Sequence record: MN895436.1
Strand: one strand, 5' to 3'
Length of the DNA: 64,000 bases
Origin: Escherichia phage teqsoen
A program made the position numbers and the translations under genes. Positions within the stretch are counted from its first letter, which is position 1, and every line of letters starts with the position of its first letter. The notes beneath the pieces were generated by a model. It worked only from the letters and a program-made list of their open reading frames with translations, made no database searches and was not told where the DNA came from. Shown piece by piece: positions 1,738-52,908 of this stretch.

Positions 1738-2762
1738 ATCTTGGCATATTTAGATAGCCGCATTTTAGCCATCAACCCCTGGGCAATATTATTTTTCATA
1801 TATTCCATAATTTGTTCAGGGGTTGCACCTTCCTTTCTAATCATATCATTGACATCTTTTGATTTCCAGGGAGATTTATCCCAAAACATAACCCTTTCTC
1901 CTGCATCAACTAATTTAGTCATTCGTTTGATAGTGTCAGGGTGACGAGGTTCATTATCTAAAACCCACACTCGTCTATCTTTAAATGGAACAACTTCTAG
2001 GTCTAATTGACCACCCGTAATAGCTATACCATTTTCAATAAAAAGTGAATCTATAGGTCCTTCTAGAACATATACATCACCATCTTTAACTCGTTCGACT
2101 CCATATATTTTTGTTGCCTCAGGATAAGCTTTAATGGTGATATACTTTTGTGGAGCATCTTTCTTTAATGCGCGTCCTTGAAAAGACTCAGCCTTTCCGT
2201 TAGCATTATAAATTGGAATAACAAGACGAGGCTCAGGTATTTCCTTTTTATATGTTCCCGGTACTATGCTATTAACTAATTTAGGCCATTCGGTTGTAAA
2301 CCAAAGATATTTCCATTTATCCTTTGGAATACAACGAGCTTTTACATATTTTATAATTGGATGGTCTTCCACCAGTTTATCTAATCTAACACATGACGGA
2401 AGAGATTTAATTATTTTCTTCTCAGGATGTTTGGGAAGTTCTTTAGGTTTTTCTACTGGACGACTTTTACCTTTTTCTTTTCTTATTTCAAAGATATACT
2501 CACGATATAAATCAGGTTCAAACTCCTTTAAATATATTCCGATTGGTGCATGATAGTTACAGTTATAACAATGAATATTTCCTTCATTATTATCACCATA
2601 ATACCATCCACGAGCTTTATTCTGGTCGGTTTTTGAATCTCCGCAAACAGGGCATCTAAACCGTAATTTAAAAGTTGAACTATTATTTACTTGTGTGAAT
2701 TTAGGTAAATGAGCTAATGCACGATACGCAAACTCATTATCAATCCAAGGTACTGATGACAT
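1734..2762 (-). CDS. 61: DNA primase (gene 61)
   Basis: 342 aa; Zn-ribbon CPVCGDS...CYNC; N-terminus matches T4 gp61. Confidence 0.93.
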   Translation of the reverse strand: MSSVPWIDNEFAYRALAHLPKFTQVNNSSTFKLRFRCPVCGDSKTDQNKARGWYYGDNNEGNIHCYNCNYHAPIGIYLKEFEPDLYREYIFEIRKEKGKSRPVEKPKELPKHPEKKIIKSLPSCVRLDKLVEDHPIIKYVKARCIPKDKWKYLWFTTEWPKLVNSIVPGTYKKEIPEPRLVIPIYNANGKAESFQGRALKKDAPQKYITIKAYPEATKIYGVERVKDGDVYVLEGPIDSLFIENGIAITGGQLDLEVVPFKDRRVWVLDNEPRHPDTIKRMTKLVDAGERVMFWDKSPWKSKDVNDMIRKEGATPEQIMEYMKNNIAQGLMAKMRLSKYAKI

Positions 2763-2928
2763 TTTTACTCTTCTTTTTCTTTAGATTCCTCTTTTTCTTT
2801 TTAGGAATCTGTTCAGGACCTTTATTTACTACAGCGCCCGACGTTGTTCCAGTAGAGATATTTTCAGGATTACCACCTGAATCTCCAGCTACCATATCTT
2901 CTTTAATAAATTCTTTATATGTTTTCAT
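2740..2928 (-). CDS. small basic protein with capsid-targeting-like N-terminus
   Basis: 62 aa; MKTYKEFIKE then Gly/Thr-rich segment and Lys-rich tail; ATG 4 nt after upstream stop. Confidence 0.5.
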   Translation of the reverse strand: MKTYKEFIKEDMVAGDSGGNPENISTGTTSGAVVNKGPEQIPKKKKRNLKKKKSKNVISTLD

Positions 2929-2974
2929 ATTAACCTCTATTCATAAAAGCATTAAAAATTTGGTCATCAATCGA
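2926..2974. repeat. 49-bp direct repeat copy 1 (gene 3' end + RBS + ATG)
   Basis: 47/49 identical to 3284-3332. Confidence 0.8.
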
Positions 2975-3286
2975 TGGAATAGCAACTTTTTCTGCATCAT
3001 TTAGCAAATCATTAATTTCATCGGATAGCATAACACATGTACCTTTATTTCCTGTAATTGTTACTGCGCAATTACGAACGTTTTCTTTATCAAATTTTAG
3101 GTTAATATTTTCGTAGTGAAAATCCTTTAATGCCGAATATATCTTTAAAATGAAATTGTCTTTTACTACAATAAACCCAACCTCACTATTAAAACGTGGT
3201 TCATGGAAACTGTAATAAACCTTTTCATCTATAAAATCGTATGAAATTTTTTCCATTTTTAAATATGAAAATTCAGAACTATACAT
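2930..3286 (-). CDS. hypothetical protein (61.1 position)
   Basis: 118 aa; C-terminus SIDDQIFNAFMNRG shared with upstream ORF. Confidence 0.6.
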   Translation of the reverse strand: MYSSEFSYLKMEKISYDFIDEKVYYSFHEPRFNSEVGFIVVKDNFILKIYSALKDFHYENINLKFDKENVRNCAVTITGNKGTCVMLSDEINDLLNDAEKVAIPSIDDQIFNAFMNRG

Positions 3287-3332
3287 ATTAACCTTTATTC
3301 ATAAAAGCATTAAAAATTTGGTCATCAATAGA
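3284..3332. repeat. 49-bp direct repeat copy 2
   Basis: 47/49 identical to 2926-2974. Confidence 0.8.
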
Positions 3333-3914
3333 AACATTTACTTTAGACTGTTTTTCTGATGGTAATTCATATCCACATATTACAATTTTGTGATCAATAT
3401 CAAAATACACAGAAGCAATATGATTAATGATGTTTTCAGTAAAGTCTAAATCAACATCAATATCTTTTTGACCACAGCCCAAAGGATAAATAATGCGAGT
3501 AATTCGATTATCTTTAACAAATATTCCACCGACATACTCTGTGCTGCGTTTAAAGTCTACATGCCGACGAAATGAAAAATATTCAGGCTCTCTATGAGCT
3601 CGGCTCATAGGACACAACGAGTAACTAGAATAAGAGATGTCAAATCCTACGCCTTCAATATGAGCCAAAGTGTCATGATTAAACCAATTATAATCGTACG
3701 CCAAATCCATTAGATTATAATATGTAAAAGGCACCGGATTAACATCATTAGTCACAAGCATGTAATTAGCAACTGCTATAATTTCATTGTTTTTAACGAA
3801 TACAAACCGTGATTGATGTGAATGACCTGGACCCACGTTTTCACGATTAATGATATAACACTGGGCACCTTTATATTTGTATGTATCTTTGCATTTGTGC
3901 ATTTGATAGAGCAT
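3288..3914 (-). CDS. hypothetical protein (61.2 position)
   Basis: 208 aa; C-terminus SIDDQIFNAFMNKG; stop/start coupled with sp. Confidence 0.6.
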   Translation of the reverse strand: MLYQMHKCKDTYKYKGAQCYIINRENVGPGHSHQSRFVFVKNNEIIAVANYMLVTNDVNPVPFTYYNLMDLAYDYNWFNHDTLAHIEGVGFDISYSSYSLCPMSRAHREPEYFSFRRHVDFKRSTEYVGGIFVKDNRITRIIYPLGCGQKDIDVDLDFTENIINHIASVYFDIDHKIVICGYELPSEKQSKVNVSIDDQIFNAFMNKG

Positions 3915-4207
3915 TATTCACCTACCACTTCAGCGATGATATTTTTGTTATTAAAGTTTTTATCGCAATACAGAACATAATTATACTGCATTACACCACC
4001 AGACTTAAGCTGTTTTTGCACTTCAGCTTTCATTTCAGGGCGATCGCGCTCAACGATATTCATAATATCTGCTTCAATTTGAGTTTCAACCTCAGTCTGA
4101 TCCGCAGTCATAGACCATTCGCACAAATCTTTATCATAACCTGCCATAGCAGGCTGAGCAGCACAAGAAGCTAAAGCAAAAATTGTGGCAAAGATAAATT
4201 TTTTCAT
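3914..4207 (-). CDS. sp: Spackle periplasmic protein (superinfection exclusion, inhibitor of gp5 lysozyme)
   Basis: 97 aa with signal peptide MKKFIFATIFALASCAAQPAMA; T4 Sp-like. Confidence 0.85.
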   Translation of the reverse strand: MKKFIFATIFALASCAAQPAMAGYDKDLCEWSMTADQTEVETQIEADIMNIVERDRPEMKAEVQKQLKSGGVMQYNYVLYCDKNFNNKNIIAEVVGE

Positions 4208-4235
4208 GATAATCTCCTCAGTAGTTTATGTTTAT

Positions 4236-4265
4236 ATAGTATCTCAATTTCCAACAAAAGTAAAC
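4236..4265 (-). promoter_or_regulatory. early promoter upstream of sp
   Basis: GTTTAC, 18-nt spacer, TACTAT on minus strand; GAGGAG RBS downstream. Confidence 0.6.
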
Positions 4266-4267
4266 AG

Positions 4268-4525
4268 TTATTTTAAAACTTCTGCGTAATCACATGTTAC
4301 AAACTGTTTCTCTAGCTTGACGATTTTACGAAAGTATCTTTTGCATTGGCGAATCTGCCGCTTCGTGGGGCGAACAGCAAACTTAATAAATTCCACTCGA
4401 CCAAATGGAGGACTTTCTTCTGCTGGAATATCTAGCACCAATTCCCACGTATCTGCAATAAGTGCTTTGAATTGCGTATTTTTCCTGACGTTATACGGTG
4501 TAGGTTTAAATAAAACAATATGCAT
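4268..4525 (-). CDS. hypothetical protein (61.4 position, next to dmd)
   Basis: 85 aa from ATG 4525 (GAGGA upstream), 1 nt after dmd stop; track ORF extends to 4567. Confidence 0.6.
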   Translation of the reverse strand: MHIVLFKPTPYNVRKNTQFKALIADTWELVLDIPAEESPPFGRVEFIKFAVRPTKRQIRQCKRYFRKIVKLEKQFVTCDYAEVLK

Positions 4526-4526
4526 A

Positions 4527-4709
4527 TTATCCTCGGCAATCCACTTCACATACTTTCTTGTCATCAATGAAAGCTTTAACTAATGCTTTATTAACTTCAG
4601 CATATTGAGTAGTAGCCCATTGAACGTCATCTTTCATCATTGTGGTTTCTTTAGTAAACATGCTTTCATTCTTAAACCACCCCATAAAAACTACCTTTAC
4701 CAATTCCAT
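4527..4709 (-). CDS. dmd: Dmd, antitoxin against host RnlA/LsoA
   Basis: 60 aa, matches T4 Dmd (MELVKVVFMGWFKNESMFTKE...). Confidence 0.88.
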   Translation of the reverse strand: MELVKVVFMGWFKNESMFTKETTMMKDDVQWATTQYAEVNKALVKAFIDDKKVCEVDCRG

Positions 4710-4737
4710 AACAATCTCCTATTTAACCAACAAGACT

Positions 4738-4767
4738 ACTATACCATAGTCTTGTCAGCTTGTAAAC
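4738..4767 (-). promoter_or_regulatory. early promoter upstream of dmd
   Basis: GTTTAC, 18 nt, TGgTATAGT on minus strand. Confidence 0.7.
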
Positions 4768-6194
4768 TAAAATTTTAATTCATTTGCCAAAGCATCTAAC
4801 TGAGCTCGAGTGGATTCATTTCTTTGATAGCGATTCTGCTCAGCCTGAATCTGTTGTGAACCTGCTACTTCACTCACTTCAGTTGGAGTAGAATCTTGTT
4901 CAATTTCTACCCATTTTTGATTTCCTTTTTGAACACCCATCAAAAACTTATTCCACTTATTCTTATCACCATATCGTGATTTGATTTGCTTAATGAGTTG
5001 CTGTTCAGCAGCTGCTAGCTCCTCGGTTTCAATGACCGCAAGCATAAAATCAGCGGTTGCTGGAAGACCAGCAGATTCTGCAATATCGCTCATGTTAACA
5101 TCGGAAGAGTCCCAAGCTTGTTTACCAACCTGTGCTGCAGTCCAAAGAACAGTTTCGGTTTCAACAGCCAGAGCACGCAATTCCTCTGCGATAGCTTTAA
5201 CAGTTGTGTAACTATTTTCTGAGTAAACTCTAATGCGGCAAGATTTACAAATACCTAGATAGTCGACAATAATGATTGTTGGAACAAAATTCTTCTTGAG
5301 CTTTAATTCATTTAAAAGTGATCGAAATGTATTAGCGTCTGCTCCACCAGTAGGATATTGCTTAACGATTAAACGACCAAGGGTAGATTTCTCACGCCAT
5401 TTTTCCATTTTTCCTTTATATTCAGCGTAAGAAATATGTCCATCATCAATGTCATCAAGAGAAACATCAAGCATGTTAGCGTCAATACGCTTAGCACAGA
5501 CTTCTTCTGCCATTTCCATGGAGATATAAAGAACGTTATGACCAAGCTGCAAATAATCTGCTGCTAATGAACAAAGTCCTAATGATTTACCAACGTTAAC
5601 GCCAGCCATTAAAACGTTCAGTGTTCCAGTTTCAGCTCCGCCTTTAGTAATTTTGTTTAGAATTCTGAGTTTAAATGGAACCTTACGAGCTTTATTCATA
5701 TAAGATAGCCAACGCGCTTCATAGTCATCCATCCAATCATGACCAACGTAGCTATCAAATGAAATTGATAATGCTTGGCGCATGATGTCAGGAATAGCAC
5801 CTACATCTGGCATTTTCTTATTTCGTTTTTCCGGAGGAAGCTCAGCATTAGTTTGAATTTCGATTATTTTAGATGTAGCATTAAACATCGCCCTTTGCTG
5901 AACATATTTTTCTGTTTCTTTTACTAACCAGCTGTGGTCTTCTGGAGAATCAGCCAGTTTTGAAATAAGTGTTTTTACACCAGAATATTCTGTTTCAGTA
6001 AATGAACTATTTTCTAATGCAACATTTAACGCATTAATAGATGGAACGCTATGATACTCATTAACATGAGATTTAATTAATTTGAATGTATTTTTAGCTG
6101 GACCACTTTCAAAATATTCTGAATCCATATATGGCCAAACTTTTGAAAAATAAGCTTGATCAAATATGAGATGAGAAAGAATAATTTCTACCAC
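4767..6194 (-). CDS. 41: replicative DNA helicase (gene 41)
   Basis: 475 aa; DnaB-family Walker A GVNVGKS; T4 gp41 length. Confidence 0.94.
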   Translation of the reverse strand: MVEIILSHLIFDQAYFSKVWPYMDSEYFESGPAKNTFKLIKSHVNEYHSVPSINALNVALENSSFTETEYSGVKTLISKLADSPEDHSWLVKETEKYVQQRAMFNATSKIIEIQTNAELPPEKRNKKMPDVGAIPDIMRQALSISFDSYVGHDWMDDYEARWLSYMNKARKVPFKLRILNKITKGGAETGTLNVLMAGVNVGKSLGLCSLAADYLQLGHNVLYISMEMAEEVCAKRIDANMLDVSLDDIDDGHISYAEYKGKMEKWREKSTLGRLIVKQYPTGGADANTFRSLLNELKLKKNFVPTIIIVDYLGICKSCRIRVYSENSYTTVKAIAEELRALAVETETVLWTAAQVGKQAWDSSDVNMSDIAESAGLPATADFMLAVIETEELAAAEQQLIKQIKSRYGDKNKWNKFLMGVQKGNQKWVEIEQDSTPTEVSEVAGSQQIQAEQNRYQRNESTRAQLDALANELKF

Positions 6195-10450: not shown

Positions 10451-10480
10451 ATAGTACCATAGAAGAACAGGGATGTAAAC
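10451..10480 (-). promoter_or_regulatory. early promoter cassette
   Basis: GTTTAC, 18 nt, TGgTACTAT; A/T-rich upstream element; near-identical copy at 52879-52908. Confidence 0.7.
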
Positions 10481-24115: not shown

Positions 24116-24331
24116 TTAAATTTTCCAGTTACCATTTTCATCAATAAATTTAATCCAGTCATTTACTGACCACTTAGTTGTATCACCTTTTGGAGTAACA
24201 TTTAAAGTATATAGCCCTTGCTTAAAAAGCATTCGTTTGATATTCATAATTTCCTCAGCTGTAACGATAACACTCGTTTGATTTACGTTTAGCAACTCGT
24301 TGAGAAGTATTATAATCAAAATCATCGTCAA
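24116..24331 (-). CDS. hypothetical protein
   Basis: 71-aa ORF with TTG start in track; overlaps next ORF, start uncertain. Confidence 0.4.
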   Translation of the reverse strand: MTMILIIILLNELLNVNQTSVIVTAEEIMNIKRMLFKQGLYTLNVTPKGDTTKWSVNDWIKFIDENGNWKI

Positions 24332-24587
24332 TGTAAACTGATTTTTTCAACTTTCTTACTTCACCACGTAATTGGCGATTTAGCTCATCTTTAACTTCTG
24401 AATCAATACCTTTCATTCTACGCCATTTATCTGAGCGAAAAATGTTTTCAACCATATCTTTATGACTTACACCATCAGGAGCTTTACGCTTTCCGAAATA
24501 GTCATAATCACGTACTTTTAAATCTTTACGACGATACGTTTTACCCATGGAGTTTAATTTCCTTAGCAACTGAACTAAATGCAGCAC
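24255..24587 (-). CDS. hypothetical basic protein
   Basis: 110-aa Lys/Arg-rich ORF, GTG start. Confidence 0.5.
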   Translation of the reverse strand: MLHLVQLLRKLNSMGKTYRRKDLKVRDYDYFGKRKAPDGVSHKDMVENIFRSDKWRRMKGIDSEVKDELNRQLRGEVRKLKKSVYIDDDFDYNTSQRVAKRKSNECYRYS

Positions 24588-40043: not shown

Positions 40044-40073
40044 ACTATACCATAACCTTGCCAACTTGTAAAC
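40044..40073 (-). promoter_or_regulatory. early promoter
   Basis: GTTTAC, 18 nt, TGgTATAGT. Confidence 0.7.
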
Positions 40074-52878: not shown

Positions 52879-52908
52879 ATAGTACCATGGAAGAACAGGG
52901 ATGTAAAC
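52879..52908 (-). promoter_or_regulatory. early promoter cassette
   Basis: GTTTAC, 18 nt, TGgTACTAT; about 65 bp near-identical to 10435-10500. Confidence 0.7.

Follow-up and report, generated by a model that had tools for sequence, protein, structure and literature searches.

The closest described system is the 'anti-TA island' of phage T4 (Srikant et al. 2022, PMC9391042), a run of small genes in the order dmd (61.5), tifA (61.4), sp (61.3), adfA (61.2) and 61.1. T4 Dmd binds and inhibits RnlA and LsoA, which are HEPN RNase toxins (PMC9391042), and T4 61.4 is tifA, the gene of a ToxN inhibitor (PMC9391042, PMC10853763); ToxN inhibition has been demonstrated for the TifA homologues of T4, T2, T6 and RB69. 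Spackle, the sp product, acts in the periplasm to inhibit the gp5 tail lysozyme of superinfecting T-even phages (PMC7677548), and T4 61.2 is adfA, encoding an anti-DarT factor (LeRoux 2022, as cited in PMC9391042 and PMC11257639). An early T4 promoter drives dmd-61.4, and 'a promoter downstream of tifA' is mentioned in the same paper (PMC9391042). The island has been textbook-level knowledge for T4 specialists since 2022, and re-finding it in a close T4 relative therefore adds nothing new.

The window analysed here is the whole 64,000-nucleotide stretch of Escherichia phage teqsoen (MN895436.1). Its interval between gene 41 (helicase) and gene 61 (primase) carries island genes that all lie on the minus strand and match the T4 island in genes, order, strand, promoters and junctions, with proteins 95-99% identical to those of T4. 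Two features go beyond the T4 locus, however: an extra 358-bp cassette with a 118-aa short paralogue of AdfA between adfA and 61.1, and a frameshifted 62-aa allele of 61.1. The features of the interval are as follows.

2740..2928, minus strand: 61.1 orthologue, 62-aa T6-type allele; 46/54 identical to T4 gp61.1, phrog_1823 match at 3.8e-32
2926..2974, minus strand: copy B of a 49-nt direct repeat, the last 14 short-paralogue codons plus the TAATATG junction
2930..3286, minus strand: short AdfA paralogue, 118 aa, AdfA C-terminal domain plus invariant tail; absent from T4
3284..3332, minus strand: copy A of the 49-nt direct repeat, the last 14 adfA codons plus the TAATATG junction; 47/49 identical to copy B
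3288..3914, minus strand: adfA (61.2), putative 208-aa anti-DarT factor A, His165 allele; 199/208 identical to T4
3914..4207, minus strand: sp (Spackle), predicted 97-aa secreted periplasmic gp5 lysozyme inhibitor; 96/97 identical to T4
4236..4265, minus strand: predicted T4-type early promoter motif (GTTTACTTTTGTTGGAAATTGAGATACTAT) for sp and downstream genes; identical to T4
4268..4525, minus strand: tifA (61.4), putative 85-aa RNA-binding ToxN endoribonuclease inhibitor; 84/85 identical to T4 gp61.4
4527..4709, minus strand: dmd (61.5), putative antitoxin mimic of 60 aa; 59/60 residues as in T4 Dmd
4738..4767, minus strand: predicted T4-type early promoter motif (GTTTACAAGCTGACAAGACTATGGTATAGT) for the dmd-tifA operon; identical to T4 and T2

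Synteny is kept relative to T4, RB18 and T2, and the Tequatrovirus loci of RB18, RB32, RB27 and teqsoen share an identical architecture, including the 118-aa ORF (RB32ORF033c). The DNA of the window is 97.7% identical to RB18 and 98.1% to its best match, and the locus is of an already sequenced type, with essentially no difference from RB18, RB32, RB27 and teqsoen. The anti-TA interpretation is likewise already published; what is extra here is the short adfA copy that T4 lacks. A sequence-only reading of positions 2930-4709 had proposed a counter-defence islet holding dmd, sp and ORFs at the T4 61.1, 61.2 and 61.4 positions. Comparison with T4 bears out dmd, sp and the two ORFs at the 61.2 and 61.4 positions, 3288-3914 and 4268-4525 being clearly homologous to the T4 proteins in alignment. 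The ORF at 2930-3286 had been misassigned to 61.1: it is the short AdfA paralogue, which has no T4 counterpart, and the true 61.1 lies outside that interval. The islet corresponds to the published island, although 'counter-defence' is not an apt label for Spackle or 61.1. An Rfam search of the interval returned no match, a scan for intrinsic-terminator-like sites found none, and the antisense ORFs on the plus strand (2717-3004, 3881-4174, 4317-4583 and 4605-4778) have no PHROG match.

The dedicated early promoters that had been proposed for sp and dmd are matched by T4-identical motifs at 4236-4265 and 4738-4767. The T4 early promoter motif was taken as GTTTAC-N17/18-TAnnnT on the early-transcribed strand upstream of a gene; the window contains 22 such motifs (1.6 expected), 21 of them on the minus strand, and no shuffle out of 100 has as many. 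Both island motifs have this form and position and agree with T4 base for base, suggesting that they are early promoters, and both sequences are annotated as promoters in the MT682714 record. The dmd motif scores 10/12 in a sigma-70 scan, with an extended TG present, and the sp motif was overlooked by this generic scan because it agrees with the E. coli consensus at only 8/12 positions. The two motifs would direct early transcription of the island as two tightly packed units, the first dmd-tifA and the second sp-adfA-short adfA paralogue-61.1, continuing into the primase gene 61.

Dmd differs from its T4 counterpart only by I22T, and matches both the full-length Pfam Dmd family (PF17587, 1.8e-45 over 1-60/60) and PDB 5hy3_B, 'Antitoxin Dmd' (9.6e-37). 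Public contigs with its exact sequence number 290, and UniRef has an entry for the same sequence that carries the tag BPT2. Immediately downstream, tifA is coupled to dmd by a TAATATG junction and has the early promoter in common with it; a 99-aa TTG-started ORF shares the tifA frame, and the ATG at 4525 corresponds to the start codon of T4 tifA. TifA has a single difference from T4 (I83V) and a full-length match to Pfam DUF7279 (PF23945, 2.3e-20), and the proposed link between the ORF next to dmd and ToxN inhibition was correct. The central basic cluster K55, R56 and R59, required for RNA binding (PMC10853763), is present within ...RPTKRQIRQ.... Residue 41, which lies at the interface (PMC10853763), is Phe, the weaker T4-type allele when read against that study; TifA with F41 does not protect T4 from plasmid-borne toxIN (PMC9391042, PMC10853763). 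Dmd would block the RnlA and LsoA RNase toxins after their labile antitoxins decay, and TifA would bind RNA and ToxN, holding ToxN in an inactive ribonucleoprotein. Judged by its allele states, teqsoen should behave like T4 or T2, with protection expected from RnlAB/LsoAB and from single-copy toxIN, and not from plasmid-borne toxIN.

The second unit begins with Spackle, which differs from T4 only by K53E. It has a full-length match to Pfam T4_Spackle (PF25676, 1.3e-44) and to PDB 6x6o (8e-62 over 1-97, N-terminal signal peptide included), and the mature chain of PDB 7cn6 covers residues 23-97. Exported to the periplasm, it would inhibit the gp5 lysozyme of superinfecting T-even phages; Spackle is a phage-versus-phage superinfection exclusion factor, not a counter-defence gene.

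The sp stop codon overlaps the adfA start (TAATG), and AdfA matches Pfam AdfA (PF23813) over its full length (1.7e-134 over 1-208). Its His165, within NIINHIASVY, occupies the column in which the RB69-like homologue P0020 has Arg. At the corresponding position 164 of RB69 AdfA, His is the DarT1-binding, neutralising state, and the AdfA-DarT1 two-hybrid interaction was demonstrated with RB69 AdfA(R164H) (PMC11257639). The teqsoen protein thus appears to be the DarT1-binding His allele, and it may bind the DarT1 ADP-ribosyltransferase and so block modification of phage DNA. The proposed link of 61.2 to escape from DarTG was correct, the gene being adfA in LeRoux 2022 as cited in the later papers, however the role of AdfA needs qualifying: T4 delta-adfA shows no DarTG1 phenotype, even without adfN (PMC11257639), and another DarT homologue may therefore be the natural target of AdfA. 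Escherichia phage teqsoen is the only phage on record with exactly these AdfA and 61.1 proteins. The AlphaFold2 model of AdfA is of moderate quality (pLDDT 70.5). There are hints of an internal duplication, a strands-then-helix pattern that occurs twice and a V/IFVK(N/D)N motif, for which the comparison is weak (BLASTP E 0.039; hhalign probability 38%).

The locus is very probably a T4-type accessory island, transcribed early as dmd-tifA and sp-adfA-short paralogue-61.1 units, carrying inhibitors of TA toxins and modular in make-up. Given the roles of Dmd, TifA and AdfA, three of its genes would therefore encode protein inhibitors of toxin-antitoxin toxins. T4 identity, family membership, allele states, promoter motifs and indel anatomy are observed here and the biochemical functions come from the literature; transferred by homology, these functions suggest that the near-identical proteins act likewise in teqsoen. 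The interval could instead be no functional island, just a place between two essential replication genes where insertions are tolerated and unrelated small genes accumulate. Such a site would accommodate an exclusion gene (sp) and 61.1, neither with a TA link, as well as cassettes that are gained and lost, and the locus of another genus is suggestive of it: between 41 and 61, Gaprivervirus vB_EcoM_VR25 (KP007361.1) has dmd, sp, a 119-aa short AdfA-like gene, a TifA-like gene and 61.1, however the gene order is changed, the TifA-like gene is placed elsewhere and there are six additional hypothetical genes. This account is rather unlikely, as dmd and tifA are co-operonic and it is improbable that inhibitors of three different TA toxins would gather at random within 1.4 kb, a point also argued by the authors of PMC9391042.

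The one addition to the island is the short AdfA paralogue. It scores above the gathering threshold of Pfam AdfA (34.1 bits against a cut-off of 27, E 2.3e-08), with a match restricted to profile positions 113-211, and lacks the N-terminal ~100 residues of AdfA. Similarity to the C-terminal half of AdfA is strong in hhalign (97.6%, E 4e-12), and BLASTP gives 34% over 106 residues; the N-terminal half yields an hhalign probability of 2.6%, and the full AdfA domain architecture is not found in the short protein. A MAFFT placement of its residues 6-19 on AdfA helix 63-76 was rejected because the model has a strand there and hhalign backs the C-terminal half only. An equivalent is annotated in the RB18 record as having 'some similarity to gp61.2; RB32ORF033c'. 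The short paralogue occurs in 332 phage records; the exact sequence is on 74 contigs, and the exact protein is recorded for RB27 and HY03. A wider family was considered and rejected: profile searching, exhaustive over 1.84 billion representatives, turned up only 10 matches.

The coverage of only the C-terminal half of the AdfA profile would suit a decaying remnant of a partial adfA duplication, with no function of its own and kept only for the junction or promoter of 61.1-61. T4 lacks the ORF with no known defect, a MotA-box-like motif lies at its 3' end, and only a 33-aa ORF with the tail is recovered at this position from the BCH953P2 record. Decay seems improbable, however: hundreds of genomes keep the ORF whole, at 118-119 aa, dN/dS is 0.0-0.35 in full-length comparisons that include a 74%-identical homologue and one from another genus, the AlphaFold2 model is a compact fold (pLDDT 79.6), and in VR25, which has no full-length AdfA, no AdfA-family member other than the short form has the C-terminal domain. 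Purifying selection acts on the short paralogue, which is a real gene.

With regard to its target, the specificity residue of AdfA (His or Arg) is replaced in the short paralogue by Cys73, which aligns with AdfA His165. T2 has no adfA but does have a short paralogue of 94% identity, and published work reports T2 delta-adfN to be ~10^4-fold sensitive to DarTG1; natively expressed, the short paralogue therefore fails to neutralise that DarT1. The short paralogue and AdfA end in the same invariant tail, DDQIFNAFM(N/K)RG (the last 12 residues of RB69 AdfA(R164H) are DDQIFNAFMNRG), which in both models is predicted to be a separate helix on a low-confidence linker. This shared tail, together with the adjacency and TAATATG translational coupling of the two genes, might indicate that the short paralogue acts with AdfA, as a hetero-oligomer through the common tail or in specificity tuning, for example, and not alone on a toxin. 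Joint action is doubtful, however, as T2 and VR25 have the short form without full-length AdfA and T4 has the converse; each occurs alone, and neither protein therefore requires the other. We infer that the short paralogue binds a toxin by itself, as a module whose target specificity differs from that of AdfA. A broader proposal, which is offered tentatively and is possible though not probable, is that the 118-aa gene and related 119-125-aa proteins of Gaprivervirus and metagenomes are a distinct group of stand-alone small phage toxin inhibitors, each with a variable AdfA-C-type globular domain and the invariant tail; the tail would be a common 'warhead' or docking helix, the choice of toxin to be neutralised, DarT-like or other, would lie with the body, and the tail-coding repeat would be the recombination site for cassette swap or loss. 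The short paralogue with its invariant tail offers a cheap and specific way into how AdfA-type inhibitors recognise toxins. In VR25, a 145-aa protein resembles AdfA only in the tail; gp038 of that phage was considered as an 'AdfA N-domain plus tail' protein and rejected, its similarity being confined to the 13-aa tail with no Pfam match.

The two 49-nt repeat copies flank the short-paralogue ORF with a start-to-start spacing of 358 nt. T4 lacks exactly the 358 bp between the copies, and T4 61.2 ends at its 3' side in sequence that combines copy A with copy B, suggesting that the cassette of the 118-aa gene, with the repeats at its ends, was lost from T4 by unequal crossover. T2 (LC348380.1) shows the reciprocal state: dmd, tifA, sp, the short paralogue, 61.1 and 61 are present in the same order, and adfA is missing by a clean deletion at a TGAATA microhomology, so that its loss was probably microhomology-mediated. 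In T-even genomes, the locus offers a clean natural example of a cassette being present or absent (0/1) by way of short repeats. In Yersinia phage phiD1, an apparent tandem copy of the cassette was discarded as a probable assembly artefact, because the duplicated stretch is full of N and ambiguous codons.

The repeats also contain predicted MotA-box-like middle-promoter motifs, at 3285-3309 in copy A and 2927-2951 in copy B. The MotA reference is a box (a/t)(a/t)TGCTT(t/c)A ~12 nt upstream of TAnnnT, from which the repeat motif, AATGCTTTT-12 nt-TAATAT, deviates at the final base of the box. A relaxed form (TGCTTYW-N11-13-TAnnnT) occurs 20 times in the window against 5.4 expected, and the equivalent of the copy A sequence is annotated as a promoter in MT682714. 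A MotA-type promoter as the cause of tail-DNA conservation was rejected across genera, because VR25 and RB69 keep the peptide and break the TGCTT box synonymously. Downstream of the cassette, 61.1 has an A5 run in place of the A6 run of T4, which shifts the frame at the C-terminus, and its ORF overlaps the start of gene 61; a 62-aa form is also on record for T6.

Between the helicase (41) and primase (61) genes lies what is in essence the anti-TA island of T4, the dmd-tifA-sp-adfA region already described under that name by Srikant et al. (PMC9391042), together with an additional gene for a short AdfA paralogue of 118 amino acids that is missing from T4. All real genes of the locus lie on the minus strand.

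Genes and early promoter motifs of the locus, with identity of the products to T4
4767-6194, minus, gene 41 helicase, 474/475 identical
4738-4767, minus, early promoter motif GTTTACAAGCTGACAAGACTATGGTATAGT, precedes dmd, identical in T4
4527-4709, minus, dmd, 59/60 identical (I22T)
4268-4525, minus, tifA (61.4), 84/85 identical (I83V)
4236-4265, minus, early promoter motif GTTTACTTTTGTTGGAAATTGAGATACTAT, precedes sp, identical in T4
3914-4207, minus, sp, 96/97 identical (K53E)
3288-3914, minus, adfA (61.2), 199/208 identical
2930-3286, minus, 118-aa ORF, no T4 counterpart
2740-2928, minus, 61.1, 46/54 identical, C-terminus frameshifted
1734-2762, minus, gene 61 primase, 335/342 identical

A sequence-only reading had taken 2930-4709 for a likely counter-defence islet. 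Since 3288-3914 and 4268-4525 do encode homologues of T4 61.2 and 61.4, its core observation stands, and it also correctly placed dmd, sp and their early promoters; the finding is real, and the interpretation was essentially already in print. Full-length Pfam matches were obtained for Dmd, T4_Spackle, AdfA and DUF7279 (TifA), with PHROGs in agreement, and solved structures were matched for Dmd (5hy3) and Spackle (6x6o/7cn6). The 2.1 kb around the locus is matched by 539 phage records, nearly all Escherichia/Shigella Tequatrovirus (top identity 98.1%). By exact-sequence look-up all six locus proteins are already public; for AdfA and the 62-aa 61.1, Escherichia phage teqsoen is the only recorded source of the exact sequence. 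Contigs of 3.2 kb and 1.8 kb deposited as Enterococcus faecalis encode near-identical TifA-like and Spackle-like proteins (clusters P0078 and P0107), most likely because T4-like phage DNA contaminated the assembly.

With 1.6 sites expected, the window has 22 matches to the T4 early-promoter pattern GTTTAC-N17/18-TAnnnT, a count reached in 0/100 shuffles; 21 of them are on the minus strand. A generic sigma-70 scan picked up the dmd promoter (10/12 with TG) and missed the sp promoter (8/12 against the E. coli consensus). Srikant et al. describe dmd-61.4 as driven by an early T4 promoter, with a second promoter downstream of tifA (PMC9391042). The genes are tightly coupled, with TAATATG junctions at dmd/tifA, adfA/118-aa ORF and 118-aa ORF/61.1 and a TAATG overlap joining sp and adfA; neither terminator-like sites nor Rfam matches were found in the interval. 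Other minus-strand early motifs include those at 215-244, 10451-10480, 24309-24338, 40044-40073, which closely resembles the dmd promoter, and 52879-52908; the motifs at 10451 and 52879 are a near-identical pair.

The literature bears out the suggestion that the ORF adjoining dmd inhibits ToxN: 61.4, there renamed tifA, encodes a protein that inhibits ToxN and shares its operon with dmd (61.5), whose product inhibits RnlA (PMC9391042, eLife 2022). TifA binds RNA and ToxN, trapping ToxN in a high-molecular-weight ribonucleoprotein; RNA binding requires K55/R56/R59, and residue 41 sets potency, F41 being weak and S or H strong (PMC10853763). The window TifA carries F41, K55, R56 and R59. The proposed link between 61.2 and DarTG also holds, with a qualification: AdfA appears to block DarT1 by direct interaction, but the main anti-DarTG1 factor of T-even phages is AdfN (gp30.3), not AdfA, and T4 delta-adfA has no phenotype, also when adfN is absent (PMC11257639 / PMC11825919). 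At position 164 of RB69 AdfA, His binds DarT1 and Arg does not (PMC11257639 / PMC11825919); the equivalent residue in the window is His165. Spackle acts against superinfecting phage by inhibiting their gp5 lysozyme (PMC7677548) and is an exclusion factor, not a counter-defence gene.

The ORF at 2930-3286 had been mistaken for 61.1: T4 runs from 61.2 straight to 61.1, and the true orthologue lies at 2740-2928, outside the interval proposed. The ORF is a short AdfA paralogue, the product of which exceeds the Pfam AdfA threshold over profile positions 113-211 only, shares 34% identity with AdfA residues 109-208 (BLASTP) and matches the C-terminal half of AdfA at 97.6% probability (E 4e-12, hhalign), while hhalign found nothing against the N-terminal half. 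Its AlphaFold2 model (pLDDT 79.6; five strands, helix, strand, helix, terminal helix) repeats the layout of the C-terminal half in modelled AdfA (pLDDT 70.5), and Cys73 aligns with AdfA His165. The presence of the gene in 332 phage records and dN/dS values of 0.0-0.35 in full-length comparisons indicate a maintained protein-coding gene; against a homologue from another genus, dN/dS is 0.21 at a dS of about 2. In RB18 the equivalent ORF is annotated 'some similarity to gp61.2; RB32ORF033c'. The Yersinia phage phiD1 record (NC_027353.1, 1310-2218) holds two copies and a 33-aa fragment. The duplicated stretch is rich in N bases and X codons, so the apparent tandem duplication probably arose from repeat-induced misassembly.

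adfA and the 118-aa gene each end in a copy of a 49-nt direct repeat (3284-3332 and 2926-2974, respectively). The copies are 47/49 identical and lie 358 nt apart start to start, and T4 lacks exactly these 358 bp. The 3' end of T4 61.2 is a hybrid: it agrees with the adfA copy at the 5' diagnostic base (TCT) and with the short-gene copy at the 3' diagnostic base (AGA GGT, giving ...MNRG), which is the signature of an unequal crossover inside the repeat. T2 is reciprocal to T4, retaining the short gene (94% identity) and cleanly missing adfA; at the junction, the sp stop and the adfA tail share a TGAATA microhomology. This loss explains why the short gene is annotated '61.2' in T2 (LC348380) when the LeRoux group states that T2 'naturally lacks an adfA homolog' (PMC11257639 / PMC11825919). 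T2 delta-adfN is about 10^4-fold sensitive to DarTG1 (PMC11257639 / PMC11825919), therefore the short paralogue at its native level does not neutralise that DarT1. T2 sp (LC348380.1, 1494-1772) has an additional A near its 3' end, giving a 92-aa Spackle with a changed C-terminus (...NKNNHR); the extra base may reflect either a genuine frameshift or an error in a homopolymer run.

An exhaustive search of 1.84 billion representative proteins with the family profile returned only 10 hits: a single cluster of full-length AdfA, the cluster of the 118-aa protein, fragments and three further short forms (119-125 aa). All of these terminate in DDQIFNAFM(N/K)RG despite less than 50% identity between their bodies. 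One short form is gp037 of the Gaprivervirus VR25, whose 41-61 interval shares dmd, sp, a TifA-like gene and 61.1 with the window but differs in gene order, additional genes and the absence of full-length AdfA. Directly upstream, VR25 gp038 (KP007361.1, 2062-2499; 145 aa) has nothing detectably similar to AdfA beyond the 13-residue C-terminal tail SVDDQIFNAFMKR, which thus looks like a portable module common to these neighbouring genes. The tail codons of VR25 and RB69 differ synonymously, which places the cross-genus constraint on the peptide. Within Tequatrovirus, the tail DNA also contains a near-consensus motif (AATGCTTTT-12 nt-TAATAT) for a predicted middle promoter of MotA type, and record MT682714 has a promoter annotation for this sequence; the relaxed motif was observed 20 times against 5.4 expected. 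New ground at this locus is limited to the cassette for the short AdfA-like protein and to the invariant tail, a modest lead and no discovery.

An A5 run in 2740-2800, as opposed to A6 in T4, T2 and RB18, shifts the frame of 61.1 to give 62 aa ending ...KKKKRNLKKKKSKNVISTLD and overlapping gene 61 over its first 7 codons (23 nt). The 62-aa form is a natural allele, not a sequencing error, since T6 and other phages also have it on record. The name 'major capsid domain-containing protein' given to 61.1 in some records looks like an annotation error. At 947-1737, gene 56 is followed by a 66-aa plus-strand ORF (1537-1737, 'similar to RB69ORF029w') and then directly by gene 61; RB18 and phiD1 share this arrangement, whereas in T4 the dam methyltransferase gene sits between 56 and 61.
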